IMG/VR virus record: IMGVR_UViG_3300028549_000688
Source of the DNA: a virus
DNA length: 64,000 nt
Reading direction: 5' to 3' (one strand)
Part shown: positions 7,656 through 61,520 of the stretch, in pieces
How the letters are laid out: every line of letters begins with the position of its first letter
Position numbering within the stretch: position 1 is the first letter of the stretch
Translations under genes and position numbers: made by a program
The notes under the pieces: model-generated
What the model saw: only the letters and a program-made list of their open reading frames with translations
What the model was told of the DNA's origin: nothing
Database searches by the model: none

Positions 7656-7669
7656 CCCCCCCCCCCCCC
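7656..7669. repeat. homopolymeric C14 tract
   Basis: 14 consecutive C counted directly. Starts immediately after the TGA at 7653-7655. Confidence 0.95.
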
Positions 7670-14923: not shown

Positions 14924-15107
14924 CGAACTTGTAGCCCTGACCGGCTACAAGTACCCCAGCAAGCAGGCTGCGTGGCTGCGCAAGAACGGTATCAAGTACC
15001 GCTTGAACCGCTTCAACCGGCCGGTGGTGGACCGCACCCACTACCTGGCCAAGATGGGCCTGGGTGTGGCCAAGGCACCAGAGCCAAATTGGGAGGCATC
15101 CAAATGA
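14901..15107 (+). CDS. DUF4224-like small protein (commonly precedes phage integrases; possible directionality factor)
   Basis: ATG 14901. Sequence MNLVLSYDELVALTGY...AAWLRKNGIKY resembles that family (from memory). ATGA coupling into int. Confidence 0.55.
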   Translation: MNLVLSYDELVALTGYKYPSKQAAWLRKNGIKYRLNRFNRPVVDRTHYLAKMGLGVAKAPEPNWEASK

Positions 15108-16150
15108 AAGACAACCAGCCCGTACCAGGAGTACCGGGCCTGTACATGCGACCCGGCAAGCGGCGCGTCCTGTACTTCTGCAAGCCGCAGAACAAGTACA
15201 CACCCCTGGGTTATGACCTCGACGCAGCCAAGGCTGCGCTGGCCAAGCTCATGGAGATGCCGCTACTTCCCGGGCAGCACACGGTGGAGCACATGTGCCT
15301 GGCGTACATCGCTGAGCAAAAGCGCTACCTGGCCAACAACGACCTTGAGGCACTGGCACCTCGTACAATCAAGGACTATGAAGAGAGTTTGACCCGCTTC
15401 ATCATCCCGGTGTTCGGCCACATGCACCCGGACAGCGTGACCAAGAACCACATTGCCAAGTACCTAAAGGACGGACGCAGCACTCGGCGCACACGCGTGA
15501 ACCGTGAGCGCGCAGCACTCAGCAGTGCCTACAAGTTCGGCTTGGCTGAGGGTCTGGCCAAGGAGAACCCGTGCCACGGCGTGCCACGCAACACCGAGCG
15601 TCCACGCAGGCGCAACGTGACCATCGCTGAGTTCAACGACTTTCTGGAGCACGCCCGCGTCAAGGGCGGCTCGTCCTACATGGTGGCGCTCATCGGATGC
15701 ACCGTGGCCATCACCGGACGGCGGCGTGGCGAGATTCTGAACCTGACACGCGCAGCACTACAACCCGAGGGCTTCAGGGTCAAGGACATCAAGACCAAGG
15801 TGGGCGAGCCTGAGCGCCACTACCTTGTCGAGTGGAGCGACCTGCTGCACCAGCTCGTGAACGAAGTCATGGCCATCCCGCGCAGGGTGTCGAGCATCTA
15901 CCTGTTTGCCACAACCGACGAGGGCACACCCTACACCGACGCGGGGTTCAGTTGCCTGTGGGGGCGGCTCATGCGTAGCTACGCAGGTAGCAGGTCGAAC
16001 CCCAGGTGGTTCACAGCGCACGACCTGCGGGCTCTGTACGTCACGCAGATGCTCGAACAGAGTCGTGACCCCAAGACTCATAAAAATGAGCAGACAATGA
16101 AGAACGTGTATGAGCGCAGCCAGGTGATCAAGGTTTCGCCACTTGCGTGA
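15104..16150 (+). CDS. int: tyrosine integrase
   Basis: ATG 15104 follows a GGGAGG SD. Catalytic pattern ITGRRRGE (R), HDLRALY (HxxR), NVYERS (Y). Adjacent to a tRNA-derived att core. Confidence 0.9.
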   Translation: MKDNQPVPGVPGLYMRPGKRRVLYFCKPQNKYTPLGYDLDAAKAALAKLMEMPLLPGQHTVEHMCLAYIAEQKRYLANNDLEALAPRTIKDYEESLTRFIIPVFGHMHPDSVTKNHIAKYLKDGRSTRRTRVNRERAALSSAYKFGLAEGLAKENPCHGVPRNTERPRRRNVTIAEFNDFLEHARVKGGSSYMVALIGCTVAITGRRRGEILNLTRAALQPEGFRVKDIKTKVGEPERHYLVEWSDLLHQLVNEVMAIPRRVSSIYLFATTDEGTPYTDAGFSCLWGRLMRSYAGSRSNPRWFTAHDLRALYVTQMLEQSRDPKTHKNEQTMKNVYERSQVIKVSPLA

Positions 16151-16180: not shown

Positions 16181-16343
16181 GTAGCAAAAAGTGCGCTAAG
16201 TTGTTGATTTTATTGATGTGCGTGGCGCACTCTTAATCCGTAGGTCGAGAGTTCGAGCCTCTCAGTTCCCACCACCCATATAGGTTTGTTGCTATGAATT
16301 TTGACAAGAGATCGTAGCAAAAACTCTGAAACGTAGCAAAAAA
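16181..16343 (+). repeat. three direct copies of GTAGCAAAAA flanking the att core (candidate integrase arm-type sites)
   Basis: Copies at 16181-16190, 16314-16323 and 16333-16342. A near-inverse TTGCTAT lies at 16289-16295. Confidence 0.6.
16230..16274 (+). other. attP core: 3' half of a tRNA-Lys(CUU)-like gene, from anticodon loop to CCA
   Basis: CTCTTAA loop, TCCGT stem strand, T-arm GAGAG-TTCGAGC-CTCTC, AGTTCCC-A-CCA end. No matching 5' acceptor or D-arm upstream. Confidence 0.7.
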
Positions 16344-19400: not shown

Positions 19401-22400
19401 CGCCGCTCGGTAGTTTGAGTCCTGTGTCTTCTATTGAGTTGGCGTGTAGTTTGTGAGCGGGTGACCCCGCCATAGGCCCGAGCGTGTCGAACGTCTTTTT
19501 AACCGGGTCGAACATCGCGTGTTGGATGGCGAAGTACGACATGGCGTTGAGCGCCCGGGTCTCATTCTGGAACTCCGGGCGAGACAGAAACCGTTGTAGC
19601 TGGGGGACTAACTCTTGAGCGACCGAAAAAGCATGCGTAAATCCGTTGCTTCCTCGGTAGACAAGCCAGTGACTGCCTTTAGCTGGTCCAAAGTCTGTCC
19701 CATCGACGAAAACCTCGAATGGGGTGTTTGCGGGATTGAATCCGCGAGCTTCGAGAACTCTTCGGAACTCATCTCCTTGCCTTCTAACCGAGGCCACGAA
19801 GCCCCGATGTGCTCCGATATGCTTTTTTGCGTCATCGTTTACTCCTTCAGGTGTTTGTGCGTTGTACCTCGGCCCACCGGTCTCATCATGATGCGCCTTT
19901 ACCTCAGCCTCGTTCTTGAGCGCCTTGAGCGCCTCGGCGCGCAGCAGCGTGGCCTTGAAGCGCAGGTCGTCGAGCCTATCGTACTCGTCACTGCCCTCTT
20001 CATGCTTGGCAGCCTCGGCCTTGAGCCGTGCCTCCTGCTTGGTCGCCCAGTCGCGTATGGCTTCGACCTGCTTGACGTTGTAGTCAGCCGGTGGGTTCTT
20101 GAGGTAGTTATTCATTTTCTCGGCTACGTCGGCGAACTTTTGTGACGGCGGTGCCGAAGCCGGTTTTGCGGCATCGGACTTCTTCGTCGCACCCTGCATC
20201 TTGCCCAGCTCGATGAGCGCGACGCGCGCACGCGCAGCATGCGGTGCGAACTTCGGGCTTTCGACCAGGCGCTGCAGGTGCCCGAGCAGCGCCTCGCGGC
20301 GCTCTGGCGAGAGCTTGCGCGCCATGGCTACGAACGACGGTACCCCCTTGGCAAGTGCGTCGATCACGAACGCGGTGCGTTGTGCGCGCTGTTCTTTGTC
20401 TGCAGATGGCGTCGCACGTGAGTCAAACGGGTGCAGCGCCTGGCCCAGCTCGTCGTAGTAGCGCTCGCCGTCGGACTCACCGTCTTCGTGACGTGAGCGT
20501 ATCGAGGTGGCCTTACCCATCTCACCGATCTCGGTTGGGAGGCCTGTGTGCTCGCGGCGGGTGTCTGCGACATCGCGTTCGACGACCCACGCCCCTGCGC
20601 GCTTAACAACTCTGTCGCTACCTTTGGCGCTAGCAAGTGCGAGCTTCTTAGAGCCGAACTTATTGCCCTGGTTGTCGCGCGCAATCACATCAGTGCGCGT
20701 TACAGGCTTCGTCTCGTAAGTGTCGGCACCGATCTCGGCATCGTCCTCGCGCCCGAGCTCGTACTTCTCAGACTTGCGCAGGATAGCGTCAACGGCCTTG
20801 GTGGCACCGGCTTCGAGGGCCGCACTCAGGTCTTCGATGTCTTCGATCACGTAGCTGCGCCCCTTGGCATCAGGCGCCATGTTTGCGAGCCGCGTCGAGA
20901 ACGACTTGAGCAGTGCCTTGCCAGCCGTCAGAATCTTCTGATTGGCAGCACCCTTGACGGCAGCCTTGGCGTCGCCATAAGTCTTGTCGCCGCTGTACAT
21001 GCGCAAGCTGGCAGGGAAGTCTTCACCGGCCTTGAGCCAGCGTACCTGATCGCCGGGTGCCTCCTTGTAGCCGACACGTCCGCTGAGCACCGGCGCACCG
21101 GTACCGCTCTTGCCGCTGGTGCTCTGGCCGTACTTGCCAGCCTCGGTCTCAGGATGTGCAGCTGCCAGCAGCGAGGCCAGCCCCTGCATGAGCGCAGTCT
21201 TCTGGCCAGCCAGGCCTGAGCTCTCGTCGACACGGCCCTCAGCCTTGCGGGCCTTGAACATGCGGTCGATGATGCGGCTGGCGCTGGTGGCGAACTCACG
21301 CGGCTTGCCGTCGGAGCCCATGCGCTCAAGCCAGATGCGCCCGTGCGCAGTGGTACCGAACTCACCGTCCTTGCCCACCTTCTCGGCCCACTTGTTACCA
21401 ATAATCTGGCCGTTGGCACCCTCGCGCCCGAACTCGTTGGCCGTCACGTTGGTGGCTTCGCCCTTCTCACGCTGTGCTTCTTCGCGCAGCACGTAGTAGT
21501 TGTCGTTGAGCACCTTGCCCAGGTCGTCGTGCTGTACATGCTTGGAGCCATCTTCCGTCGTGACCTCGCGGCCAGTCTTGTTCTGCAGCTGCAGCAGCTC
21601 GTCGTACTTGCTCTCGATGATCTTCTGCGCGTCGCCCATGAGCCCTTCGGCGTCGTTGCCGTGCTTCTCGCGCAGGTAGTCCATGTAGCCCTGCTGCGTC
21701 GCCTCGACGGCGCTGGTGCCGTGCAGCTCGGCCATGCGCTGCTTGGACACCGTGTCATGGAACGTGTCGGGCACAGCGAGGCCGTTCTTGTCGTTGTTCT
21801 TGACTCGCCCGCCAACGCGGAAGGGCTCAGGCAGCTTGATCTCGCCAGTGGTCTTGTCGACGCTACCTTCCTTGTAGTGGTGGTACTTCACCGTCGGTGC
21901 ACCCGCGTCGGGGTCGAGGTGGCTCGACGTGATCTGTTCCATGCCCTCAGCATCCATGCCGGGGATGACGTTCGGGGCCGGATTACCAGCCATGTCGCCG
22001 AACTCGTCGACCTGCGCGTTGGTGCGCTGTTCACCCGTGGTGAACTCGAACGAGCCGTCCTTGCGCCGAGCCTTTTCGTCCACATTGCGCAGCGCGTCGA
22101 GCACCAGGCGTGCGCGCGGCCCAAAGAGCTGGCGCGCCTCAGCGCTGTCGATCTTGTCAGCACGCATGTCGCCCTGCAGCTTCTCGGCCAGCGTCCGCAG
22201 TGACGGCGTGCTATACGCACGTCGCGCAGTCGGAAGGAGGTTGCTCTCAACAATGGCCCATGTGTCCTTCTGAGTGTCCTGCAAGACCTTGATCTGTTCC
22301 AGCACACGCGCACGAGTCTGCAGCGCATCGTCGTCGATAAGCCCCTGCTTGTGCATCATCTGCGTCGTGGCCACCACGGCAGCAGCCGGGTCGGTGAACA

Positions 22401-24081
22401 TGTTCAGCAGCGACTTGGGCACGACGGGCTCGCCGCCTTTCTTCATGCTAAAACCGTTGGCCACCCAGTTGCGCATGGCATGGCCCAGCGTGGGCATTGC
22501 ATTCTCCAGCGCCTCTGGTGTCTTGAGCCCGGTGAACGGTGCCAGGCTCTCTTCGAGGATTGGGCTGAAGTCGTCGCGCTCGTTGGCTATCTTGCGTCCC
22601 ATGGCCGGAGTCATGGCGTTCTGGCGGCCGTCAGCCTCGCGCTTGCCGTTGTAGGCAGTCAGCGCGTCGTCCTTGGCGTTCATCAGGTCAGCCGCGCCTT
22701 TGCCAAGCGCCTCGGCCACCGGAGCCAGCTTGTCGGACAACAGGTCGTTGGCTCCGCTGAGAATGTCCTCTGAGCGGTGCATGTCGTTGACTGCATCGGC
22801 CACAGGGCGCCAGCTGTCCATGGTCTTGCTGCCCTGCATGTACTGCTGCACGGCTGCATGCACGTAGTCCGGCACAGCCCCCGGATTTGCTTGAGTCTTT
22901 GCTATGAAGTTAGCAGCAGCCTGGTGCTTGGCTGCGTCGTCGGCGCGCAGGCCGGCCTCGTCCATGCCCTTCTGCGGCGTGAGCAGCACGTCGACATCTG
23001 CGTCGCGGCCCTTCTGCGCCCAGCGCGTGACCATGTCCTCGGCCTGGTTGTGCAGGTTTGCCGCACCTTCGCCCACCATGACGGCAGCCTCGTCCCACGA
23101 CTGCGGGCGTGCATCCCACGCCTGCTTGGCAGCGCCGCCGGCGGCTATGGCACCGCGCTTTCCCGCGCGCGCTGCGTAACTGGCCGCGTCGCCCACCGCT
23201 GCCGCCCCGCCGCCAAGCAGCTGGTGGCCCACGTCGCCAGCGTGGCCCATGGCACCGTAAGCTACGCCACCGGCAGCCTCGCCAGCCATGGCGTCGGCCA
23301 AGCGCCAGCCATCGTCGGTCGTGTCGCGCTGAGCATCGCGCCCAGTCTCGTAGCCCATGGCCACACCCTCAGACACACCGGCTGCGCCCGTGTCCAGCAG
23401 CACGTCGCGCCCTATGCGCTTGGCAGCGCTGGCCACCGGCTGACGCAGCACGTTGGCTGCCGTACCGCGCACCAGGCTGCCGCTGGCCAGGCCTGGCACC
23501 GTGCCCTCTATGAGCGACTGCGTCAAGCCCTGGTTGCTGGTATTGGTGAGCACGCGCTGCGGGTCCAGCGCAGGCGCACCCTGCTGCTCGGCCTGCAGCT
23601 GCTGCAGTCGGGCAGCGTCGCGCAGCTGCGGGTACATGCCGCCCGAGGCACCCAGGTGGCTACCTATGGCTGCGCCCGCAGGGCCTGCCACCAGGCCGCC
23701 CAGCACGCCGCCAGCCAGACCGCCGCCCATGGCGGGCACGGCCGAGACTGGCAGCGAGCCCACCGTGCCTGCGAACCAGTCGGCACCGTCGCCCCATCCG
23801 TGTATGTCACGCAGGCTGCGCACCCTCGGTGCCACCTGCTCGGCCTCTTGCGCCAGCTGCTGAGCGCGCAGTTGGCTGGCCTGAGCACGCGGCATGTCGC
23901 CTGCGGCTCGGGCCTGCCAGTATTCATCAGCAGCGGTGCCAGCACTGTGCCCGACGAGCGCCGACCGCAGCCCGCGTGTGACTTGTCCGTCTTCGACGAA
24001 GCGGCTGTAGTCGGGGTCTGCCGGAGATGGCAGTGAATAAACCGCTTGGGGGGTTGTCGCTTGGTACAGAGCTGTTGCCAC
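16402..24081 (-). CDS. giant multidomain virion/ejection (polyvalent-type) protein, 2559 aa, with HExxH metallopeptidase-like motif
   Basis: GTG start with a GGAG SD. Gly-zipper/Ala-rich N-terminus. GAHEAFHEF at 18970-18984. Last gene of the late arm. Confidence 0.65.
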   Translation of the reverse strand: MATALYQATTPQAVYSLPSPADPDYSRFVEDGQVTRGLRSALVGHSAGTAADEYWQARAAGDMPRAQASQLRAQQLAQEAEQVAPRVRSLRDIHGWGDGADWFAGTVGSLPVSAVPAMGGGLAGGVLGGLVAGPAGAAIGSHLGASGGMYPQLRDAARLQQLQAEQQGAPALDPQRVLTNTSNQGLTQSLIEGTVPGLASGSLVRGTAANVLRQPVASAAKRIGRDVLLDTGAAGVSEGVAMGYETGRDAQRDTTDDGWRLADAMAGEAAGGVAYGAMGHAGDVGHQLLGGGAAAVGDAASYAARAGKRGAIAAGGAAKQAWDARPQSWDEAAVMVGEGAANLHNQAEDMVTRWAQKGRDADVDVLLTPQKGMDEAGLRADDAAKHQAAANFIAKTQANPGAVPDYVHAAVQQYMQGSKTMDSWRPVADAVNDMHRSEDILSGANDLLSDKLAPVAEALGKGAADLMNAKDDALTAYNGKREADGRQNAMTPAMGRKIANERDDFSPILEESLAPFTGLKTPEALENAMPTLGHAMRNWVANGFSMKKGGEPVVPKSLLNMFTDPAAAVVATTQMMHKQGLIDDDALQTRARVLEQIKVLQDTQKDTWAIVESNLLPTARRAYSTPSLRTLAEKLQGDMRADKIDSAEARQLFGPRARLVLDALRNVDEKARRKDGSFEFTTGEQRTNAQVDEFGDMAGNPAPNVIPGMDAEGMEQITSSHLDPDAGAPTVKYHHYKEGSVDKTTGEIKLPEPFRVGGRVKNNDKNGLAVPDTFHDTVSKQRMAELHGTSAVEATQQGYMDYLREKHGNDAEGLMGDAQKIIESKYDELLQLQNKTGREVTTEDGSKHVQHDDLGKVLNDNYYVLREEAQREKGEATNVTANEFGREGANGQIIGNKWAEKVGKDGEFGTTAHGRIWLERMGSDGKPREFATSASRIIDRMFKARKAEGRVDESSGLAGQKTALMQGLASLLAAAHPETEAGKYGQSTSGKSGTGAPVLSGRVGYKEAPGDQVRWLKAGEDFPASLRMYSGDKTYGDAKAAVKGAANQKILTAGKALLKSFSTRLANMAPDAKGRSYVIEDIEDLSAALEAGATKAVDAILRKSEKYELGREDDAEIGADTYETKPVTRTDVIARDNQGNKFGSKKLALASAKGSDRVVKRAGAWVVERDVADTRREHTGLPTEIGEMGKATSIRSRHEDGESDGERYYDELGQALHPFDSRATPSADKEQRAQRTAFVIDALAKGVPSFVAMARKLSPERREALLGHLQRLVESPKFAPHAARARVALIELGKMQGATKKSDAAKPASAPPSQKFADVAEKMNNYLKNPPADYNVKQVEAIRDWATKQEARLKAEAAKHEEGSDEYDRLDDLRFKATLLRAEALKALKNEAEVKAHHDETGGPRYNAQTPEGVNDDAKKHIGAHRGFVASVRRQGDEFRRVLEARGFNPANTPFEVFVDGTDFGPAKGSHWLVYRGSNGFTHAFSVAQELVPQLQRFLSRPEFQNETRALNAMSYFAIQHAMFDPVKKTFDTLGPMAGSPAHKLHANSIEDTGLKLPSGESLLRVLGTTPQQMIRFFGMTAAFHEAMGGMISDVTWERVSGARVKNTGMTREGSTKFNKQNPANKAFGTSTATPATPAEVEKFHADIMRRLGPGMKSAALEMLYGKNAKGKDIMLSGKWEKGAIYASVYARNLGQVGAHEAFHEFFDRMKSEPAAAEVMKLLDRAANAPYVVRQLERLLDGETEALKQIKQGAKNAAEERMAYMFQFWEAGLLNIGPETQNIFTKLAAFFRKVAGLLNDDERVDLLLRNFDEGKMQTADAAARVLANSVTARQKMYEGVNNAFKPMMERAGRLVNTAETNLERTGNPVYKEVRRMFKRSVGEDGAQGFLDAKDHQMKLWGNRLATVFEGLHPKDLELAAPYLHTGETPKDPAVKQLVARLKGPNGLLPEMHKYLKQAGVERWEASPDGEGGEWVPMGKIDHGYFPRAYDTAMILGNVDGFVADLVKFNPDELGAIAAAQNATLAKSVGKDFTPVTSEDVAKAIANRLINAFGQTEIEESGSSIGFSPFMQAINRRQMHWIHPEMLKKYGDKDVSRILTGYIAQGVKRAEYVRKFGNGGEVLKDKLEKAHDMQLAKLVENKFGVTDLYNKAKMAKPIDGKGSMPERMWQTVTFSQPDADKAAFDALTVKALKMAQGAAKDVMAMEGTLGYNISPKNRQFQNSVLVYENMRLLSMSLFSQFIDPLNLLVRGATVGDAWNAYKRGLREVVASIKDDPIKDLDAKIADQVGTTDANHFLAAFGQLHGSQYLGAKFRKINDVMFKYNGMEGFNRGMQVAATRAAINFIKRHVQTPNERSAAYLKELNLTAKDVKVGADGELDYTDPRIQQALHQWVNGSVLRPNAAQRPAWASDPHYMVFWHMKQFAYTFHDVVLKRALHDYKKFGDMGPAGMLALTYTPVMIASDALKSVLLTGDEPVWMKGGLDSELEHGAMRAGLLGKFQPMADTMAPHHTVLSLGGPAIEQITEMFTDAPAETAVNALPGANVWNTMKGNSLADGHADS

Positions 24082-24093
24082 GTGAGTCTCCGG

Positions 24094-26661
24094 TTATTGC
24101 TTGGACACAGGCAGTCGCCCTAGTGTTTCCAGCATGGCCCTACCGTTGGGGTCGTTGATGATGTCCATGAGCGGCACGGAAATCGGTCCGCCGACACCGC
24201 GTATCTGAACTCGCTGGTCGTTGATCCACGGCAGCTTTGTTTTCAGATAGCCGTCCAAGTGCATATTGGCCGCCAGATCGGCAAGCTCTGCCGCGCGAGG
24301 CCCATCGACAACGGCCACGCGACCTGGCGCTACACCTTTGCCAAGAGCCGATTGCTTCGAGTATTTGTTGGCGAATTCACTGAGCGTGTGCTCGTTGGAA
24401 GCATGCTGTGCAAACGCTTTGGCCTCTCGCGGGTGGTGCGCGAACGCATAGTCCAGCGACATCTCTCTGTCACCAATTTTCACCGTCGGTAGCGTCTGTG
24501 CGATGTACGCACGCTTGCGCGCCAGCGCCCGCTCGTCGAGGGTGGGCGGCTTCTCACCCTTGGGGTCGTCGATGTACATCGACGGGTCGTTCTTGAGATA
24601 TTCGTCGAACGACTTAGACCCTTCGCGCTGCATCTCGCCGGTGTACTTGGCCCGATCTAGCCCAAGGCGCGCCAGGAGCCCCTGCGACGTGAGCTGGTTG
24701 TGCTCGCGGTTTATCTCGTTTTGCTCACGTGCGGTCGCGTCGGACGCAGCGGCGGTCTGCTGCTGCATCTTGGCCTTCTGCATCTCAACCATCGCTGCGC
24801 GCCTGTGCTTGCTCATGGGCTGGTTCAGAGCCTCGGCGTCTTCACGCAGGGTGCGTTCAGCCGTCATCTTGTCAGCAAGGGCTGACATGCGCCCCGCCAC
24901 CTCGACACCCTCAGCGTATTGCCGGGTGCGCTTGTAGTCGGTTGTCGGTTTACCCTCCTCGTCCACGTAGGACATCTTTTCCGGCCCAGTTGAGTTGGAC
25001 AACACGAGTCCTCCGTTTGCGTCGCGCGAAGCTCTGATGCCCGCGCCACGCAATGCCCAGGCTTCGTTGGCCGTGTCCATCGCTGCACCTTTGAGGCCCC
25101 TGATGTTCATGTCGGCGTTTGTGTTGGCGATGCCGCCGCCACCCTGTGGTACCCGCCATTCGCTCGGATCGGCCACACCCGCCTTCAGCGCAGCCGCGCG
25201 CAGTGTGTAGTCCTCATCGGCGGAGCCTCTGCGACCAAAGACCGTGTTGAGCATTGCATCGCTCTTCAGCCTGTCGTCGTCGGTGACCGCGACAGGGAGG
25301 CTTGGTGTTTGTGCTGCTTTCTCCTGTGCAGCATGCTCCGCCAGCTTGCGGTCATTTTCCGCTTTGAAGGGGTTGGTGTCGGCCTTGTTCGCAGGGGCTG
25401 CCGTGCTCACGTCGCGCACACCTTGCGCAGCACCCTGCACTGCGCCAGCCACCAGCGGACGCTCGGCGAGCTTGAGCGTCTTGCTAATTGCACCTGCCCC
25501 AAGGCCCAGCGCGCCACGTGCGACGGGGCCCGCGCCTGGGATCATCGAGACTGCGTTCAGCGTGTTGCCGACGTTGCGCCCCGTCTCGTTGTCAGTGAAG
25601 TAGTTGTACGGCTGTGCGGCAGGCGTTGCACCAGCCACCCCTCCTGTGGGAATTTTACGGACCTGTTCTGTCTCTGTCGGGTTGGGCCGCACAGGGTTGT
25701 TGGACGGGTCTCCGATATTCGTGGCAGCCTGAGCTGCGGCGTACCCCGCAGCGCCACCCATCGCACCTGCAGCCAGCCCGCCGAGGACAGGTTTGACAAC
25801 CGACGGTCGTACTGGCGCGGGCGCGGCGGGTGTTGCTGCTATACCCGGCGTTGGTCGGCCACGCGCCGCGTCCCACTGATTGCTACCCCACTGCTTGGCC
25901 TGTTGCCAGGTCGACTTTGGTGCTGGAGCTGCTTCTTGAATTGGCGGTGGCGCAGCGCCGGACGTGTTACCCATGGGCGGCGGTTTGCGGGCCTGCGCCT
26001 TGGCTGTGGCTGCGTCCTTCATGGCTTGCGCTTCGGGGCTTATGCCCGGCGCAGGGCCTGCACCCGTCCCTCGCGCGCCCAGGTCGTTGGCCATGCCGTT
26101 GAACGCAGTGCTACCTGGCGGCGGCTTCGGCGCACGCTTCTGCCCGAGCAGGTCAGCGGCCACGTCCGCCATCGGGGGCACACGCGCATCTGCAAAATGC
26201 CCACCGGCTCGCAGCCCTCCGCGTGCAGGCGCTATACCGTCGTTGGTCTGCTCGATGAGCCTTGCAAGGTTCTCTACACCTACCTTGGCAACCGTCTTGG
26301 CAGGTAACACAGCCTCGCCGCGTGACAGGTTGGCAGGTACTGAGTCGCTGGTGGCGGTGCCTGGGCCATGAACGTACGGCGTACCTCGTGACAGCTGTAG
26401 ACCACTCGGCATGGCTATCGGGTTGTAGCTGCCAAGCATGGCACCTGTTGTGGCGCGCAGATTGCGCGGCGCGGTTGTGGCGGGCGGTGCAGCAGGGCTT
26501 GTCAGTGCACCTGTAGGTGTGTTCTGCAGATTGTTGAACGCGGCCTGATCCTGTCCACTCATGGGTGCGGTGTTCATGGGTGGCTCGGGCACCAGGCCTG
26601 TTGCAAAGCGGTTCGCGGCACGGGCCTTATGGAGTCCGCGTAGTATCTGTGTTTCTCTCAT
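24094..26661 (-). CDS. internal virion/ejection protein, 855 aa, Ala/Pro/Gly-rich
   Basis: GGAG SD. The GPGTATSDSVPANLSRGEAVLP motif resembles one recurring in phage tape-measure/ejection proteins (from memory). Long low-complexity core. Confidence 0.55.
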   Translation of the reverse strand: MRETQILRGLHKARAANRFATGLVPEPPMNTAPMSGQDQAAFNNLQNTPTGALTSPAAPPATTAPRNLRATTGAMLGSYNPIAMPSGLQLSRGTPYVHGPGTATSDSVPANLSRGEAVLPAKTVAKVGVENLARLIEQTNDGIAPARGGLRAGGHFADARVPPMADVAADLLGQKRAPKPPPGSTAFNGMANDLGARGTGAGPAPGISPEAQAMKDAATAKAQARKPPPMGNTSGAAPPPIQEAAPAPKSTWQQAKQWGSNQWDAARGRPTPGIAATPAAPAPVRPSVVKPVLGGLAAGAMGGAAGYAAAQAATNIGDPSNNPVRPNPTETEQVRKIPTGGVAGATPAAQPYNYFTDNETGRNVGNTLNAVSMIPGAGPVARGALGLGAGAISKTLKLAERPLVAGAVQGAAQGVRDVSTAAPANKADTNPFKAENDRKLAEHAAQEKAAQTPSLPVAVTDDDRLKSDAMLNTVFGRRGSADEDYTLRAAALKAGVADPSEWRVPQGGGGIANTNADMNIRGLKGAAMDTANEAWALRGAGIRASRDANGGLVLSNSTGPEKMSYVDEEGKPTTDYKRTRQYAEGVEVAGRMSALADKMTAERTLREDAEALNQPMSKHRRAAMVEMQKAKMQQQTAAASDATAREQNEINREHNQLTSQGLLARLGLDRAKYTGEMQREGSKSFDEYLKNDPSMYIDDPKGEKPPTLDERALARKRAYIAQTLPTVKIGDREMSLDYAFAHHPREAKAFAQHASNEHTLSEFANKYSKQSALGKGVAPGRVAVVDGPRAAELADLAANMHLDGYLKTKLPWINDQRVQIRGVGGPISVPLMDIINDPNGRAMLETLGRLPVSKQ

Positions 26662-26693
26662 ATCAGACTCCGTTAGAGTTAAGGGTATTGTAA

Positions 26694-26710
26694 AGCGCCA
26701 CTATGGCGCT
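26694..26710 (-). terminator. weak hairpin (AGCGCCA-CTA-TGGCGCT) downstream of the moron cassette
   Basis: 7-bp perfect stem read directly. Only a poor U-tract on the minus strand. Confidence 0.3.
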
Positions 26711-26722
26711 GGGGGTTGTTGA

Positions 26723-26977
26723 CTACTTGTAGAGCTTTACGCAGCGCTCTTCTTCTTCGAGTCGCCACACTTTGTGCGCGTTAACAGCGGCTACGCACTC
26801 AGCACGTTTGTCAGGGCTCTGACCGTAAGCCGCGCCTGCGCAACCCAATCGCTGCAAGTCGGCTGTGCCTGAAACTCGCTGCACGACGCCTGCATCTTCC
26901 ATGCACTTTTCGAGCTTTTGTTGGTTACCGCTGCACCCTGACACAGCAAGTAGCGTTGCAAGCAATAGTTTGTTCAT
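26723..26977 (-). CDS. small Cys-rich lipoprotein (84 aa)
   Basis: Signal peptide MNKLLLATLLAVSG|C with a lipobox. Five further Cys in the mature part. Sits in a low-GC island. Confidence 0.7.
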   Translation of the reverse strand: MNKLLLATLLAVSGCSGNQQKLEKCMEDAGVVQRVSGTADLQRLGCAGAAYGQSPDKRAECVAAVNAHKVWRLEEEERCVKLYK

Positions 26978-55992: not shown

Positions 55993-56419
55993 CTGTGACG
56001 GGCTGCGAAGGTGCCATCTGCATAGCGATGAGCTCTTCGTCGCTCATGGCCTCGAACTTTGAGCGCATGCGCTGCTGGTTCATGCTGATGTTGATGTTCT
56101 TGACCTCTGGCGCGTAGTGACCGAGGATTTTTGCGACCTCTGTCCACCCCTTGATCATGTTACCTGCGTCACCCTGCATGCGGGCACATGCGATGCCGTC
56201 CATGATGCCGTCGATCACGTCGATGCGCTTGATCTGTGTGAGGTCGGTGAGCTTTTCACGGGCGTTTGCGATCTCGATACGCACGAGCTCGGACTTGTCA
56301 GGACAGCTTGAGTTCGGATAACCAGCGTCTTTGGCCGACTCGTGACGTGACTTGCCCGTGAGGACTCCGGCGACGAAAGTCGATTGCTGAGGACTGAGTG
56401 CTGAGGGACGTCTGGCCAT
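55967..56419 (-). CDS. terS: terminase small subunit
   Basis: LSPQQSTFVAGVLTGKSRHESAKDAGYP HTH pattern. First gene of the late arm; overlaps terL by 26 nt. Confidence 0.75.
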   Translation of the reverse strand: MARRPSALSPQQSTFVAGVLTGKSRHESAKDAGYPNSSCPDKSELVRIEIANAREKLTDLTQIKRIDVIDGIMDGIACARMQGDAGNMIKGWTEVAKILGHYAPEVKNINISMNQQRMRSKFEAMSDEELIAMQMAPSQPVTDVDAKTLN

Positions 56420-56427
56420 GGTGCGAG

Positions 56428-56457
56428 ATTATAAGAGTCCGTGAGATTTTGCAAAAT
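56428..56457 (-). promoter_or_regulatory. candidate promoter for the late arm (TATAAT, TTGCAA) overlapping the palindrome ATTTTGCAAAAT
   Basis: On the minus strand, TATAAT (56433-56428) lies 8 nt before the terS ATG, and TTGCAA (56454-56449) lies 15 nt upstream of it. Perfect 12-bp palindrome at 56446-56457. Confidence 0.3.
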
Positions 56458-56663
56458 TTATATGGAGAAGTGTCTTGAGAAAAAGACGGGGGTGGGGTGC
56501 GGATTTGAAAACGAAGTGACGAAGGAACTGAGGGACGAAGGAGCACGGTTCTGTGAAACTGCGTGAACAAAGTCATGCGAACAACCCTCCCGGGGTCCGG
56601 AAAACCGCCCACCGTGTTCGGATTCGGGTTTCGTATTGCATAACGTCCCTTCTAATACCGTCG

Positions 56664-56710
56664 TCGCAAGCTCCTCCAAATACCTTGTGATGTGCAGTTG
56701 TCTTAACTGT
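56664..56710 (+). promoter_or_regulatory. conserved 47-nt element, copy A (27-nt core with stem-loop)
   Basis: 42/47 identical to 57522-57568. Ends 21 nt before ATG 56732. Confidence 0.6.
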
Positions 56711-56731
56711 GTTCTTTATAAGGAGCCCTTC

Positions 56732-56929
56732 ATGGCTACTACCTCCAAGTCCCTCGCCACTATGACCGCTGCTGAACGCCTGCAGTTCTATCGTGAGGCT
56801 GCCAAGCAAGCCAAGCCCGCTGCCCAAGCCAAGACGTCCTTCGCTGAAACTATCGGCAAGCTCGGTGCTGACTTCGGCAACTTCAGCACCGATGTCAAGG
56901 CTACCTATCAGTTCCACCGCTATCAGTGA
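56732..56929 (+). CDS. hypothetical early protein (65 aa)
   Basis: AAGGAG SD. First ORF of the plus arm. Confidence 0.6.
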   Translation: MATTSKSLATMTAAERLQFYREAAKQAKPAAQAKTSFAETIGKLGADFGNFSTDVKATYQFHRYQ

Positions 56930-56973
56930 ACAACGGGCTTCGGCCCTTTTGTTCAACAACTCAGGAGATAGCT

Positions 56974-57189
56974 ATGGTGTCAACAACTCAGGAGCAAATC
57001 ATGACATACAAAGAATTTATGGCGGAGCAGTATGCAAAGCAAATCGCGCTTGGTATCGAAGCAGGCTGCAACGGCGCAACTTGGAAAGAACTGGTGCAAT
57101 TGCAACTGTTGTGCTGGCGCGAATATTACGCTGCGTGGTGGAAGCTGACCTGCGCGAAGTTCAAAGAGCTCCGTGCCCAAAGGAGATAG
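56974..57189 (+). CDS. hypothetical early protein (71 aa; alternative start at 57000)
   Basis: The duplicated CAACAACTCAGGAG provides an SD for both ATG 56974 and ATG 57000. Confidence 0.5.
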   Translation: MVSTTQEQIMTYKEFMAEQYAKQIALGIEAGCNGATWKELVQLQLLCWREYYAAWWKLTCAKFKELRAQRR

Positions 57190-57191
57190 CT

Positions 57192-57275
57192 ATGGTGCGT
57201 TACCGCATATACAAAGTGTTGCGTGCTCTGGGGTACAGCCCGGCGCACGCATGGCAGAGGGCGTATCAGCTATGA
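57192..57275 (+). CDS. 27-aa micro-ORF (MVRYRIYKVLRALGYSPAHAWQRAYQL)
   Basis: Same AGGAGATAGCTATGGTG initiation cassette as at 56963. ATGA-coupled to the next gene. Confidence 0.3.
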   Translation: MVRYRIYKVLRALGYSPAHAWQRAYQL

Positions 57276-57517
57276 ACGCATTCCTCTCGCATATTGACTT
57301 AGCACCCGTGTTCTACGGCGTGCTGCTGTGCATCGGCGTGTACTCGCTTATGTACAAGCTGATGCGTGGCAACTTCGTCACGTTCGCTGTTGAACTCGGC
57401 GTGTTCTACGTCGTGTTCAAGATGCACGGCGGCACGGTTCTCGGCGGCTTGTCCGCTGCCATCGCCGCCTTGATCGTAGGCCTCACTCTCAAATGGTTTG
57501 TGCGCATCGTGCGCTGA
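57272..57517 (+). CDS. 81-aa membrane protein with three hydrophobic segments (holin-like or exclusion-like)
   Basis: Segments LAPVFYGVLLCIGVYSLMY, FVTFAVELGVFYVVF, VLGGLSAAIAALIVGLTL, followed by a basic C-terminus. Confidence 0.6.
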   Translation: MNAFLSHIDLAPVFYGVLLCIGVYSLMYKLMRGNFVTFAVELGVFYVVFKMHGGTVLGGLSAAIAALIVGLTLKWFVRIVR

Positions 57518-57521
57518 CACC

Positions 57522-57568
57522 TCGCAAGCTCGGTCAAAGAGCTTGTGATGTGCAGTTGTCTTAACTGT
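57522..57568 (+). promoter_or_regulatory. conserved 47-nt element, copy B
   Basis: Identical 27-mer at 57542-57568. Ends 19 nt before ATG 57588. Confidence 0.6.
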
Positions 57569-57587
57569 ATCTATATAGGAGTCCGTT

Positions 57588-57767
57588 ATGGAACTCAACT
57601 CTGGTGAACTGTTCACCTTGTCAGCTGACCCGATGCTCATTCTCATGGCTCTCGAATGCGAGACCGTCAAGGATGAGCAAGAACTGTCAGCCATCACCGA
57701 CGAGCGTGAGTCTGCACTCTTGGCAGCTCAGGCCTATGTTGCTATCCGTCAATCATCTTTCAACTAA
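57588..57767 (+). CDS. 59-aa acidic early protein
   Basis: My own translation; below the track cut-off. TAGGAG SD. Confidence 0.5.
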   Translation: MELNSGELFTLSADPMLILMALECETVKDEQELSAITDERESALLAAQAYVAIRQSSFN

Positions 57768-57779
57768 TTGGAGTTTCTC

Positions 57780-58688
57780 ATGTTCAACCGTTCATTCAAC
57801 CTCACCGCCTTCGTCAAAGATATTCCGTCGCTCGCAATCCGCAAGGCTGCGTGGCTGTCACTCGTTGGCTCTGTCAACGCATCGTTGTTCGGTGCTGCTG
57901 ATGCCATCGCACAGAAGCTGGTTGCTGATGGCATCGAGCCGAGCGAGTTCGTGACGCTCACACCGCGCGAGATTCGTGCGCTCACGTCCGGGCCTGAGAC
58001 CGGAGCAAGCAAGGACGCCGTGTCAGCCGCACGTAAGCTGTACAAAGTCCACGTCGAGTGGCGCACTGAGTTGCAACACTGCACTGTTGTGTCATCTGGC
58101 CGTAAGGCTGACGACACACTCGGTTCGATCTATTCGACCATCAAGATGATGACCGGCCCACAAAAGGAACGTGGCATCAGCGCTGAAGCAATTCCAATGC
58201 TTGCATCACTCGGCATCGAAGTTACGGCCGAACTAATCGCTGGTGCAAAGAAACAGCGTTTGTTGGACGACAACTTCTTTGCAACGCAACGTCGTCAACG
58301 CGCGGGCATGATCGAGTTCATCATCGACAACATGTTCGCATCGGAACTCAGCGATGAGGACGACGAGTTTTATTCAGAGCTCGACGTCGATGTCAAAGAG
58401 TACCTCGCAAACAAACTGATGACCGCGATGAACAAAGCAATGACGAGCGCAGTGAACAACACTTTGTTCGGACGCAAGGGTGACAACGTGCTCGGTGTCG
58501 GTGACTATCTCATCGCACAGAAAATAATTCCACAACTCATCGACGCAATGAGCGTGTCAGCTTCGAGCAAGGTTGTGAAACGCGTTCGCAAGACAGCAAA
58601 GCCAAAAGTGCAACGCGCACCGAAGCCAGTAACACCAACGACGACAGTCAGTGAAGTCAACGGCATCAAGGTCACGACTGCTGCGTGA
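57780..58688 (+). CDS. 302-aa hypothetical early protein with basic C-terminal tail
   Basis: ATG 57780 follows a TGGAG SD. Followed by a strong terminator. Confidence 0.65.
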   Translation: MFNRSFNLTAFVKDIPSLAIRKAAWLSLVGSVNASLFGAADAIAQKLVADGIEPSEFVTLTPREIRALTSGPETGASKDAVSAARKLYKVHVEWRTELQHCTVVSSGRKADDTLGSIYSTIKMMTGPQKERGISAEAIPMLASLGIEVTAELIAGAKKQRLLDDNFFATQRRQRAGMIEFIIDNMFASELSDEDDEFYSELDVDVKEYLANKLMTAMNKAMTSAVNNTLFGRKGDNVLGVGDYLIAQKIIPQLIDAMSVSASSKVVKRVRKTAKPKVQRAPKPVTPTTTVSEVNGIKVTTAA

Positions 58689-58699
58689 TAAATTCAATC

Positions 58700-58734
58700 G
58701 AGCGACGCACGAAAGTGTGTCGCTCTTTTATTTT
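58700..58734 (+). terminator. rho-independent terminator
   Basis: 11-bp stem (one G-U pair) GAGCGACGCAC / GTGTGTCGCTC with a GAAA loop, then TTTTATTTT. Confidence 0.75.
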
Positions 58735-59051
58735 GCGGCACAAACTATGGTGTTTTTAAAACCTTCCAATACCAACCTTCCGAAACAGTTTTTACTCCTA
58801 CTACGTACACACTACACAGTCTCTATATCTATATAACTTTTACTTTAACTATATATATATATTAGAAGAATAGAAGGAAATAGGTGTCTCCCCTAGGGAA
58901 ACGGGACATTCCATTGTTCCTTCCAGTGTAATTCCTATAGGCACTGAATCTGCCATAGTTTTTCACAATTTCGCACTTCAAATCTGCTGTGCTCTAATGC
59001 GCTCTCAGTCAATCGTGACTGAGCACAAAGTTCTTTTGGAAGTTTCAGAAT
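58735..59051. other. AT-rich non-coding region with short repeats (candidate origin and/or promoter region)
   Basis: (TA)6 run at 58850-58862; TAGAAG twice; ACCTTCC twice; palindrome CCCTAGGG; hairpin CTCAGTCA-ATCG-TGACTGAG. No ORF with an SD. Confidence 0.35.
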
Positions 59052-61520
59052 ATGGCTGCTATACATTTCCTAGCGTCTGACGTTGCCCTCGGCAAGTCAT
59101 TCTGGCTAGACAGTCAAGGCGAACTCTGCAAATCAAGCTACCCCAATGTGCGCGACTTCACGTCGACCACAGTGCAATGCACAAGCATCAAAGACTTTCA
59201 TGCGGCACTCGTAAAGCAAGCAGCACTCGGTGCATGCTTGTTGAAAGGCAAACTGAATCGTGAGCTCGATAACGAATCACGTGCAGGCTCAACCAAGTCA
59301 GACGATGCAACTGATTGGCTGTGCCTCGATCTCGATGGTGCGCCTCATGCAACCCCACAAGAGTTCATGGCATCAATACCCGAGTTCAAAGATGTGGCGC
59401 ACGTCGTTCAATACAGCGCCAGCTATGGTGTCAATGGCAGCACCAAACTTAGCTGTCACATCTTCATGCTCATGGATAACAAGCTGCCAGCCACCAACAT
59501 CAAGACATGGTTGATGGACAAGAACCTGAGCGACACACTGCGCAAAGGCATCACGCTTGGTCGCACCGGTGCAGCACTGCACTGGCCTGTTGACATCACT
59601 GCATGCCAGAACGACAAGCTGTTGTACATCACACCACCAAAGATTGGCAAAGGCATCAGCTGTACTCTAAAGGACTCTGAGCGCATTCAGCTTGTACCTG
59701 GACGCATCCAACTGCTACCAGCCAAAGCATTGACAACCAAGCGCAGTCTTGAGCAGGTCAAGGCTGAGGCACAAGCCCTGCGCGACGCACTGCGCAAAGA
59801 TGCAAGCTTGCCAGCACTGCGCACTACGACACGCATCGTTGGTGAATATGAAGTCCAACCCAAGCCAGGTCAAGCAACGATCACAGGTAGAAAGGAAGAG
59901 CGAGGCTATGTTTATTTCAACCTTAATGGCGGCAATTCTTGGGGCTATTACCACCCTGTCGGTAACCATGAGTTCATTCACAATTTCAAGTCAGAGCCCG
60001 TCTATTACACACGTGAGCTACTGCCTGACTATTACAAAGACTGCAAAGTCCAGCAACGCATCCAACAATCCCAACCCACAGAAGGTGGCGAGTTGGTGCT
60101 CGCCTTTCGTGACAAGCGCACAGCGCAATACTGGAATGGCATCTGGTCAGAAGACACGCAGCACTTAGAGCTGCATCCTGCCAAGTCAGAGCTTCAGCTC
60201 AATCACTGGATGCAGAACCACGACCTTCCACCGTGGGAAGTCATACCTGTGTGGGACATGCACTTCAACCCGCAGTCCACAGTCATTCTCAACGAAGACG
60301 AAAAAACGATCAACACGTACGTGCCCACGAAATACTTCCGCATGAAGTACGACACCAAAGCGTCACTGGACAAGTGCCCACTGATCAAGCGCATCATGCT
60401 CCATGCCATCTCAGGTGGCCAAGAGGACGAGACGTTCGAGCACTGGCTCAACTGGCTCGCCGTTGTGTTCCAGCACAAACGCAAGCCAAAGACAGCATGG
60501 ATACTTCATGGTGAGGAAGGCACAGGCAAGGGTGTCATCATCAGCCGCATACTGACTCCATTGCTAGGCGCTGAATACGTTGTGCAGAAGCGCGCCAGTG
60601 AGCTCGAAGAGAAATTCACTGGCTGGATGGAAAAAGCTCTCATTGCTTTCATTGACGAGATCGAGGTGTCATCGAGCATACGCAAAGACACCATATCAGG
60701 TGACCTACGCTCTTTCATTACAGAAGACGTAGTCACCATCAGGCACATGAACCGTGCAGCTGTGCAGACACGCAACTACACAGGCCTCATATTCAGCTCA
60801 AACAAACCAAACCCGGTCATCATAACTATAGGTGACCGCCGCTACAACGTAGGATTCTTTCAGAAACTAAAACTCATCATTACGCAGCATGAGCTGGACA
60901 ATGTAATACCAACGGAGCTCGAAGCGTTCATGAGCTACATCATGACGCGCGAAGCAGACATACAGAAAGCTGTAACACCACTCAAGAACGAAGCTCACAA
61001 AGACCTTGTCGAGAACAACAAGACCAGTGCAGACATCACTGCCAGCCAACTGGCTAACGGCGACCTGATGGCACTATGGGAAATGCGCATGGACCTGAAT
61101 ATGGCCATACAGATCACAGGTGGCAACGCAGGCTTTGCTCACATGTACCACGACATCATCAAGCGTGAGATCGAGCTGCTGGCAGCCAGCCCCAACGGAG
61201 GTGATTACAAAGCTCGTATATCGAAAACAAACAAGATCGACAAAGTCATAACAACTGAGTCACGCCTGACACGCGACGAGCTCCTGGTGATCTTCGAGCA
61301 CTGTGTAGGGAACATGCCTAAGACACCGAACAAGTTTACGTCTCTGCTCAAACACAGAGGGATTAAGACAGAGCGTGTTTGGGTGAACGGAGCGGCGCAA
61401 TACGGCCTGCGTGTCGAGTGGAAAGCGCCTCGCTCATGGCTCGACGAGACCATGGCTGAGTTCAAGGCAGCCACACCCAAGACATCACGGCTACAACTTG
61501 TGAAAAGGAAGACAGCATGA
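59052..61520 (+). CDS. bifunctional AEP-type primase(-polymerase) / SF3 helicase
   Basis: N-terminal LCLDLDG and SCHIFM. C-terminal Walker A GEEGTGKG, Walker B AFIDEI, motif C IFSSN. Confidence 0.85.
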   Translation: MAAIHFLASDVALGKSFWLDSQGELCKSSYPNVRDFTSTTVQCTSIKDFHAALVKQAALGACLLKGKLNRELDNESRAGSTKSDDATDWLCLDLDGAPHATPQEFMASIPEFKDVAHVVQYSASYGVNGSTKLSCHIFMLMDNKLPATNIKTWLMDKNLSDTLRKGITLGRTGAALHWPVDITACQNDKLLYITPPKIGKGISCTLKDSERIQLVPGRIQLLPAKALTTKRSLEQVKAEAQALRDALRKDASLPALRTTTRIVGEYEVQPKPGQATITGRKEERGYVYFNLNGGNSWGYYHPVGNHEFIHNFKSEPVYYTRELLPDYYKDCKVQQRIQQSQPTEGGELVLAFRDKRTAQYWNGIWSEDTQHLELHPAKSELQLNHWMQNHDLPPWEVIPVWDMHFNPQSTVILNEDEKTINTYVPTKYFRMKYDTKASLDKCPLIKRIMLHAISGGQEDETFEHWLNWLAVVFQHKRKPKTAWILHGEEGTGKGVIISRILTPLLGAEYVVQKRASELEEKFTGWMEKALIAFIDEIEVSSSIRKDTISGDLRSFITEDVVTIRHMNRAAVQTRNYTGLIFSSNKPNPVIITIGDRRYNVGFFQKLKLIITQHELDNVIPTELEAFMSYIMTREADIQKAVTPLKNEAHKDLVENNKTSADITASQLANGDLMALWEMRMDLNMAIQITGGNAGFAHMYHDIIKREIELLAASPNGGDYKARISKTNKIDKVITTESRLTRDELLVIFEHCVGNMPKTPNKFTSLLKHRGIKTERVWVNGAAQYGLRVEWKAPRSWLDETMAEFKAATPKTSRLQLVKRKTA

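Follow-up and report, generated by a model that had tools for sequence, protein, structure and literature searches.

Short regulatory elements have been described in the early regions of several model bacteriophages. The early RNase III sites of T7 (R0.3-R1.3) are single irregular hairpins of ~20 bp found downstream of strong sigma-70 promoters, and the upstream product keeps the hairpin at its 3' end. In HK022, the putL and putR sites bring about read-through of terminators without any phage protein. The put RNA, a double hairpin of ~65 nt, is required for early expression of this temperate phage (PMC8632103). PeSL elements of T4-type phages, which flank small early open reading frames (ORFs), join a promoter, a stem-loop terminator lying between or over the -35 and -10 elements, and a Shine-Dalgarno sequence (PMC2839356). 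The early promoter of N4 is a hairpin on the template strand with a stem of 5-7 bp, a 3-nt loop with a central purine and a GC-rich heptamer centred at -11, and its sequence is conserved from -17 to +1, with the start 11 nt downstream of the loop centre (PMC4496689). In N4, extrusion of the hairpin relies on gyrase and SSB, and early transcription is rifampicin-resistant. Here, we examined a 47-nt element that occurs twice, upstream of small early ORFs, in a 64,000-nt stretch of phage DNA (IMG/VR record IMGVR_UViG_3300028549_000688; the whole stretch is referred to below as the window). It had been picked out from the sequence as a repeat with a stem-loop that is not sigma-70-like, with an N4-type promoter as the favoured reading. 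The two copies are the window's form of a family-wide double-hairpin early-gene cassette of KPP25/Bcep22-like phages. We estimate a probability of roughly 0.65 that this cassette is a sense-strand RNA element and not an N4-type DNA hairpin promoter.

A family-wide early-gene cassette

The two copies align at 42 of 47 positions (89%) and share a 27-mer, CTTGTGATGTGCAGTTGTCTTAACTGT, that is found exactly twice in the window, both times on the plus strand, with no further match at up to three mismatches; the chance expectation is 0 (100 dinucleotide shuffles). Copy 1 ends 21 nt upstream of the ATG at 56732 and copy 2 ends 19 nt upstream of the ATG at 57588, with AAGGAG or AGGAG 6 nt before the start codon. 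These features agree with the original prediction, as does the stem-loop CAGTT(G)-TCT-(T)AACTG at 56695-56709 and 57553-57567. The copies had also been placed before the first ORFs of the plus arm, which is correct for copy 1, but copy 2 lies before the fifth small ORF, after those starting at 56974, 57192 and 57272.

Approximately 100 loci from relatives were fetched, anchored on TerL and primase. Some 45 cassettes, two or three per genome, were counted in ~25 contigs, KPP25 included, with TerL 40-82% identical to that of the window. The cassettes are at syntenic sites, before the orthologues of ORF1 (whose N-terminus, MATxSKSLAxMxAAERLxFYRE, is conserved among the relatives), ORF5 and sometimes ORF6. 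On the coding strand, the order is hairpin 1, a U/G-rich linker of 13-19 nt, box 2 [TGTG(Y)A(G)], hairpin 2, a spacer of 8-12 nt, and the Shine-Dalgarno sequence and ATG. A cassette is present before the ORF1 orthologue in L001, L002, L004, L005, L013, L014, L034 and L112, and before the ORF5 orthologue (MELNSGEL...) in L001, L002, L004/L034, L013, L014 and L104. The ORF6 orthologue has its own cassette in L001, L004 and L034, and there is none before ORF6 of the window. In the closest relative, L001 (TerL 82% identical), the three copies, the third of them before the ORF6 orthologue, share TCGCRAGCTC and GCAGTTGTCTTAACTGT. In remoter relatives the 27-mer is lost and the architecture is retained at the same syntenic positions. 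Relatives thus keep the genes and the element together, and the element is a genuine gene-associated signal that is not of the sigma-70 type, as had been proposed.

Other searches added little to this set. A pattern scan of viral contigs (box 1-N16-19-box 2) gave 62 matches, nearly all attributable to chance, with L112/L159 the sole new member. Rfam covariance models found nothing relevant at E <= 10 in 56300-59100, and the early region had no DNA-level match among 50,697 phage records. Contigs encoding ORF5 were considered as a source of evidence for transcript ends, and no transcript-like ends were present.

Covariation in the two hairpins

Box 2, invariant in the form TGTGYAG, is the most widely conserved motif of the cassette across the ~45 examples. 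Taken alone, it shows no enrichment in the window, with 29 matches for an expected 27.6. Hairpin 2 was compared in 14 alignable cassettes, where the stems differ but are all anchored at one box 2 position. In this alignment, 91% of cells are paired, compared with 26-49% when the partners are slid, and double-sided changes are found at four pairs, in 20 cells. Position 5 switches from C:G to U:A, position 8 uses four pair types and position 9 uses two, and a C at the Y of box 2 is matched by G in the opposite arm, a U by A. Covariation in the stem had been suggested as a check on the original prediction, and the stem of hairpin 2 does covary across the relatives, a pattern in the aligned sequences that clearly indicates structural selection. 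The linker sequence AAGAC (GAAAGAC in L001; AATAC and AAGAG in the window, at 56677-56683 and 57535-57541) is complementary to the hairpin 2 loop GUCUU, and this may allow alternative pairing or a pseudoknot in the window/L001 lineage only.

In the 13 window-type cassettes, box 1 is TCGCRRGCTC, with TCGC..GCTC invariant. The stem that flanks it is paired in 72% of cells, compared with 22-41% with slid partners, and all five pairs change on both sides. Nine different flank stems were found, including ACC/GGT, CGAC/GTCG, CTGCC/GGCAG and ACGCT/AGCGT. The ten nucleotides previously described as semi-variable do differ between the window copies but are not free, as they form the 3' arm of hairpin 1 and are complementary to each copy's own 5' flank; in copy 2, the GGT of this segment pairs with ACC just 5' of the repeat. 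The ends of the repeat unit coincide with the outer bases of hairpins 1 and 2. In copy 1, RNAfold pairs 56662-56670 with 56684-56692, and in copy 2 an alternative fold of hairpin 1 is a 10-bp stem formed by 57522-31 and 57539-48.

Outside the window-type lineage, hairpin 1 takes the form of a perfect GC-rich palindrome whose tip is GC-RR(R)-GC, for example AGCTTCGC-AGA-GCGAAGCT in L014 and TGATTCGC-GGA-GCGAATCA in KPP25. In L030 and L060, an ordinary UUCG terminator, the same hairpin as at 56935-56953 in the window, replaces hairpin 1 (box 1) and lies 6 nt from box 2. Between the tip of hairpin 1 and box 2 there is a constant distance of 22-24 nt. This was rejected as a sign of duplex recognition because outward growth of the stem by substitution from a fixed centre gives the same pattern.

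The hairpin 1 region is much stronger in internal than in first cassettes (-21.5 vs -9.1 kcal/mol, p = 0.004, 6/6 genomes), which fits a role as terminator or 3' hairpin for the preceding message. The form of an intrinsic terminator, with a U tract right after a GC-rich hairpin 1 stem, was seen in L002b, L013b, L004b/c, L031 and L089, with U5 in several relatives. The window copies and KPP25 do not have this form, and a terminator scan called neither window copy.

Two KPP25 regions and one in phiA008 were also recorded. In KPP25 (L041), perfect hairpins are found before the first two plus-strand genes, TGATTCGC-GGA-GCGAATCA at 24014-24032 and GCGCGCTGC-GGA-GCAGCGCGC at 24322-24342. Further along (26618-26833), three tandem 49-nt repeats, ~80-88 bp apart and 92-98% identical, occupy a 680-bp gap between early genes. 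In phiA008 (L171 ~60-115), GGGACTCCTAAG adjoins a box-2-like TGTATGG that has a downstream complement, with no hairpin 1 between them. From its sequence, this layout suggests that hairpin 1 may be an optional insert between two older motifs.

Strand of action and comparison with the N4 promoters

Folded as sense RNA, each window copy forms two hairpins with 1 nt between them, with z-scores of -3.2 and -3.9, the latter for the fold of copy 2 that has the 10-bp alternative stem (whole-cassette minimum free energy -24.1 kcal/mol); the antisense values are -1.2 and -2.6. The partner of the invariant G in box 2 is U in nine cassettes and C in five (n=14), the apical closing pair of hairpin 2 is G·U in 12/14, and internal G·U pairs are needed in the hairpins of L013a, L014a, L008 and L097. 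In internal cassettes, the stems of hairpin 1 are 15-18 bp long, include several G·U pairs, and fold with -33 and -28 kcal/mol in the sense strand against -20 and -17 kcal/mol in the antisense. Relatives' cassettes also have UUCG, GAAA and GCAA loops. The G·U positions and the UUCG/GNRA loops are suggestive of sense-strand RNA, and we infer that RNA, not DNA, is the form in which the hairpins fold.

The resemblance to the N4 early promoters P1-P3 (PMC4496689) lies in small hairpins that are partly conserved and partly covarying, present in two or three copies where the early arm of a giant-protein podophage starts, with a 5-bp Watson-Crick core in hairpin 2 and, past the stem, a T-rich run like the one that N4 has on the coding strand of P1 (GTTGC-TTC-GCAAC) and P2 (GAAGAAGC-TCC-GCTTCTT-ttGG). 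The template-strand loop has G at its centre in 11/14 aligned cassettes, which is a resemblance only. However, the template-strand loop AGA that had been proposed does not form: the G·T closing pair becomes A·C on that strand, giving a 5-bp stem and a 5-nt loop, AAGAC, and neither the GC-rich heptamer nor the 3-nt purine loop of N4 is present. The G·U polarity is the opposite of that in N4, and the L013a and L014a hairpins cannot form without G·U pairs that only the sense strand offers. The start sites that the N4 geometry predicts (56713 and 57571) fall in sequence that differs between the copies. Both hairpin 1 tips in KPP25 are GCGGAGC, identical to the N4 P2 heptamer, but they are on the coding strand, again the opposite polarity.

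Table 1. Features of the early arm of the window
Feature	Position	Strand	Details
Conserved blocks found only before the first cassette	56617-56659	+	TTCGGATTCGG (56617-27) and degenerate GGAGTCCCTTAAYAC (56645-59); 8-genome alignment
Cassette copy 1, upstream of ORF1	56664-56710	+	47-nt repeat
Box 1, copy 1	56664-56673	+	TCGCAAGCTC; makes the loop or tip of hairpin 1; alternative partner CTTGTGA (56684-56690)
Box 2, copy 1	56691-56697	+	TGTGCAG; 5' base of hairpin 2
Hairpin 2, copy 1	56692-56712	+	CAGTT (56695-99), loop GTCTT, AACTG (56705-09); extended by sense-strand G·U pairs
ORF1 and its Shine-Dalgarno sequence	56720-56929	+	AAGGAG at 56720-25; ORF1 at 56732-56929, 65 aa
Terminator-like hairpin after ORF1	56935-56953	+	GGGC-TTCG-GCCC then TTTTGTT; from reading of the sequence
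Hairpin 1, copy 2	57519-57548	+	flank stem ACC (57519-21)/GGT (57532-34) around box 1 (57522-31)
Cassette copy 2, upstream of ORF5	57522-57568	+	begins 2 nt past the ORF4 stop codon
Box 2, copy 2	57549-57555	+	TGTGCAG; 5' base of hairpin 2
Hairpin 2, copy 2	57550-57570	+	9 sense-strand pairs
ORF5 and ORF6 with Shine-Dalgarno sequence	57577-58688	+	AGGAG at 57577-81; ORF5 at 57588-57767; ORF6 at 57780-58688
Strong intrinsic terminator ending the ORF1-ORF6 block	58700-58735	+	11-bp stem then TTTTATTTTG

The phage and its giant virion protein

The window holds nearly the whole of a phage genome of ~66 kb, with two arms diverging from 56420-56731. The minus arm begins with a terS-like gene; TerL, portal, major capsid and tail genes follow, and the gene for a 2559-aa virion protein (16402-24081) comes last. 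In the plus arm, six small ORFs (56732-58688) are followed by genes for primase, helicase, a family A DNA polymerase, ligase, thymidylate synthase and an integrase (14972-16150). About 45 ORFs were annotated using PHROGs and Pfam, and no sigma factor gene was found among them. By TerL and capsid, the closest cultured relatives are the Pseudomonas phages KPP25 and phiR18 (Kochitakasuvirus) and Aeromonas phiA008, with phiA008 and KPP25 the nearest TerL matches, and Acidovorax AP1 and the Bcep22-like phages are remoter relatives. AP1 was considered as a guide, but its genome layout is different (co-directional) although the capsid is related, and it was uninformative.

The capsid gene had been taken as N4-type, but is KPP25/Bcep22-like. 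A tblastn search with the major capsid protein gave 81 matches, to KPP25-like phages, AP1, Bcep22-like phages, and Ralstonia and Klebsiella podophages, and none was in the Schitoviridae. The giant virion protein that had been noted is indeed present, and it has a homologue in a 4.4-Mb contig of Rhodoferax fermentans that is probably a prophage. Given the integrase and this homologue, the gene content marks the window phage as temperate or recently temperate and, given its capsid relatives, not N4-like.

An N4-type promoter would need a virion-delivered RNA polymerase. The giant protein gave no match in Pfam, and none in PDB by sequence or family profile. AlphaFold models searched with Foldseek covered residues 300-2559 (300-1499, pLDDT 65; 1500-2559, pLDDT 73), leaving aside residues 1-299 and several tail proteins, and showed no polymerase fold. 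The C-terminal model is all-helical and its best match, a weak one, is a PhiM1 ejectosome protein, while the model of the middle region matches nothing. Among homologues, only the N-terminal ~300 and the C-terminal ~920 residues are conserved. The other large ORFs show no polymerase signal, and the only protein of polymerase size without an assigned function, from an ORF of 854 aa, belongs to a widespread family with a G/T/N-rich consensus that reads like that of a beta-helix tailspike.

The middle of the giant protein (16402-24081, minus strand) varies between homologues, some of which have Peptidase_M78 or SNase domains, and an HExxH motif (H1700/E1701) is conserved in the C-terminal domain. 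By these features, the giant protein resembles a polyvalent ejection protein.

Possible roles of the cassette

The explanation that we consider best, and hold only tentatively at somewhat less than even odds, is that the cassette is a transcribed double-hairpin leader that punctuates the early mRNAs. In the internal copies, hairpin 1 would be a terminator, an attenuator or a 3'-protective hairpin of the preceding message, and the linker and UGUG would be the site where the next message begins, via initiation or cleavage. Hairpin 2 would then be a 5'-proximal leader hairpin that stabilises the message and leaves the ribosome-binding site exposed. The two hairpins would thus divide the labour between them, with transcription presumably starting at or upstream of box 2. 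The RNase III sites of T7 are similar in being repeated, related structured elements found before each early gene, the first included. They differ in that the cassette stems are of 3-10 bp and no promoter is visible.

Several observations weigh against this explanation. Raw folding energy favours the sense strand for hairpin 2 in 35/40 cassettes, but strand assignment on this basis was dropped because the difference was gone after composition control (hairpin 2 z -2.47 for sense and -2.19 for antisense, 19/38; own shuffles), so that the assignment comes down to the G·U positions. The cassettes in both covariation alignments were picked for alignability. Hairpin 1 covaries also in first cassettes (L005, L013a, L002a and L112), where no message lies upstream for it to terminate, and termination is therefore not its only role. 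A position weight matrix (PWM) scan of eight genomes, over the 360 nt that precede the first cassette, found no plus-strand sigma-70 site above background or consistently placed; the best scores were 6.5-11.3 bits, the background best per 400 nt being 5.5 at the median and 8.5 at the 90th percentile. A promoter must then be hidden somewhere, and possibly in the cassette itself. Finally, a role in stability alone leaves unexplained the invariance of boxes 1 and 2 and, in the loop of hairpin 2, a central C that hardly varies. Such features suggest recognition by some macromolecule, and for this reason readings based on a put-like RNA or on a promoter remain serious.

A put-like RNA is one of two less likely alternatives that we rank together. 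The transcribed double hairpin would, by analogy, stay on the host RNA polymerase and allow read-through of the terminators after ORF1 and ORF6. The original prediction had included a nut- or put-like RNA among its readings, and the architecture would fit, with two adjacent hairpins predicted on the sense strand (~49 nt in all) in the early region of a temperate phage that carries an integrase, each cassette lying upstream of a terminator-like hairpin (56935-53, 58700-35). Conserved loop and box nucleotides with covarying stems are consistent with a fixed partner such as RNA polymerase, and, as in HK022, no dedicated antiterminator protein is apparent, ORF1 when read by eye having no N-like arginine-rich motif. 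The likeness to put is one of architecture and placement, with no sequence relationship apparent. The cassette is shorter than put and is found as two or three tandem copies in a single same-direction 2-kb block, whereas put and nut occur once per operon, in HK022 one for each of the divergent operons. The internal hairpin 1 is itself terminator-like, the PWM scan identified no promoter upstream, and there is no matching Rfam family.

Hairpin 2 resembles the lambda nut site in its 5-bp core and its pentaloop (GUCUU, GACGU or GCCUU), in being repeated in the genome and in having its first copy just upstream of a small early ORF. The boxA consensus (CGCTCTTA) is absent, however, with the boxA-like GCTC(C/G)(T/G)(C/T)CAAA found in copy 1 only, so this part of the earlier reading did not stand. 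The cassette loop ends in U and is not GNRA-like, the conserved box is the base of the hairpin rather than lying 8 nt upstream of it, and ORF1, as noted above, lacks an arginine-rich motif.

The other alternative of equal, low standing is a non-canonical promoter inside the cassette, a PeSL-like composite of terminator and promoter. Boxes 1 and 2 would be read as duplex DNA, with the start at box 2 and hairpin 2 as the 5' end of the mRNA, by the host polymerase with an unusual sigma or an injected factor, or by an unrecognised phage enzyme. There must be a promoter upstream of ORF1. A consensus scan found no -35 TTGACA/-10 TATAAT-like pair with a spacing of 16-18 bp on the plus strand near either copy, so that together with the PWM scan the absence of a sigma-70 pair reported earlier holds. 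Sigma-70, extended -10, sigma-54, sigma-E/ECF, sigma-32 and MerR-type (19-bp spacer) arrangements were all tried by eye and PWM, and none fits consistently. Either the cassette holds a non-canonical promoter, or a weak or unusual one lies upstream. The searchable Kochitakasuvirus literature makes no mention of promoters or a polymerase.

No element other than the cassette recurs before several early genes, and in window-type cassettes the spacing between boxes 1 and 2 is fixed at 17-18 nt. In the window subfamily, a GASNNT hexamer lies 4 nt before box 2, with A always at position 2 and T at position 6. Moreover, if the internal hairpin 1 is the efficient terminator that it looks like, ORF5 and ORF6 would demand re-initiation. 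Set against this, no register fits a -35 element, the repeat unit extends only to about -30 relative to box 2, and no gene for a sigma factor or RNA polymerase was found. L030 and L060, with a UUCG terminator in place of box 1, are also hard to accommodate, and duplex recognition leaves the covariation of both stems unexplained.

PeSL elements (PMC2839356, PMC4122927) are likewise short, modular, repeated cassettes before small early ORFs, with a terminator-like stem-loop followed by a Shine-Dalgarno sequence and start codon, and their copy number varies between close relatives, as it does between L001 and the window. The modular stem-loop terminator and the Shine-Dalgarno/start flanking small early ORFs are thus shared. 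The sigma-70 promoter is not, because PeSLs have -35 and -10 elements and an AT-rich UP region, of which the cassette has none, and the cassette instead has two covarying hairpins and the invariant TCGCRRGCTC and TGTGYAG.

Two blocks upstream of the first cassette (Table 1) are also present in L013, L002, L014, L034, L005 and L004. TTCGGATTCGG consists of two tandem TTCGGA units and is kept in KPP25 (L041 ~23955-23975), where TerL is only 39% identical; TTCGGATTCG is also in KPP25. GGAGTCCCTTAAYAC resembles the Shine-Dalgarno sequence and spacer of ORF5 (AGGAGTCCGTTATG). Neither TTCGGATTCGG nor GGAGTCCCTTAAYAC fits a known promoter, and possibilities for them are a promoter, a pac site or a fossil start.

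A more speculative possibility, to which we give a low probability, is a new class of structure-dependent early promoter, with a hairpin tip (GC-RR-GC) ~23 nt upstream of TGTGYAG, in KPP25/Bcep22-like podophages, where neither an RNA polymerase nor a sigma factor is recognisable. Either an unrecognised enzyme could read it, or the host polymerase could do so with a factor that the giant polyvalent virion protein supplies by injection. If true, this would explain the absence of a sigma-70 promoter for the early arm in 8/8 genomes.

An operator or stoperator, a duplex-DNA site for a phage repressor or other regulator of early genes, was also among the earlier readings, and we think it improbable. 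A temperate phage with invariant boxes in the same orientation before early genes, and with palindromic hairpin 1 tips in its relatives, might be expected to have one. However, the palindrome arms differ between copies of one genome (KPP25a and KPP25b, L014a and L014b) and stay complementary, which is the signature of pairing and not of conserved half-sites. Box 1 of the window is not palindromic, the cassette is found in the lytic KPP25 as well, and no repressor gene was identified. Least probable of all, and very unlikely, is the originally favoured hairpin promoter of N4 type, given a phage with an integrase and a non-N4 capsid, no polymerase found and hairpins without the N4 features.

Other features of the genome

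An identical 17-mer, AGGAGATAGCTATGGTG, comprising the Shine-Dalgarno sequence, ATG and next codon, opens both ORF2 (56963-56979) and the 27-codon ORF3 (57181-57197). Between the ORF6 terminator and the primase gene, ~320 bp of non-coding sequence (58736-59051) is partly AT-rich, with (TA)n runs and short palindromes, and is a candidate for the replication origin or a middle-promoter region.

On the minus strand, a near-consensus sigma-70 site (TTTGCA-16-TATAAT, 11.5 bits, 56417-56455) lies just upstream of the terS-like gene. From the end of its -10 hexamer to the ATG of this gene there are 8 nt, with no intervening Shine-Dalgarno sequence, and TAYAATCTC and ATGG are conserved in L001, L002, L013 and L014. 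The mRNA for the first structural-arm gene may be leaderless.

Between the integrase gene and the end of the giant gene (~16218-16273, plus strand), the sequence ...GGTCGAGAGTTCGAGCCTCTCAGTTCCCACCA resembles a tRNA in its 3' half, with T arm, acceptor stem and CCA. Neither ARAGORN nor Rfam called a tRNA here. From the resemblance, this is a likely attP core for integration into a tRNA gene. A run of ~14 consecutive C residues on the plus strand is found in an intergenic position at 7656-7669.

Significance

The cassette belongs with the regulatory cassettes known from phage early regions, among them PeSL, put/nut and the T7 R-sites, and there is a modest chance that it is categorically new. 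KPP25-like phages (Kochitakasuvirus) are under development for Pseudomonas therapy, and their relatives are abundant in metagenomes and are found also as prophages. For this group, the analysis defines a conserved early-gene cassette that lacks a sigma-70 promoter, together with structural constraints and a short list of mechanisms. If the cassette is a put-like RNA or a new type of promoter, a mechanism of a few model phages would extend to a large unrelated group.

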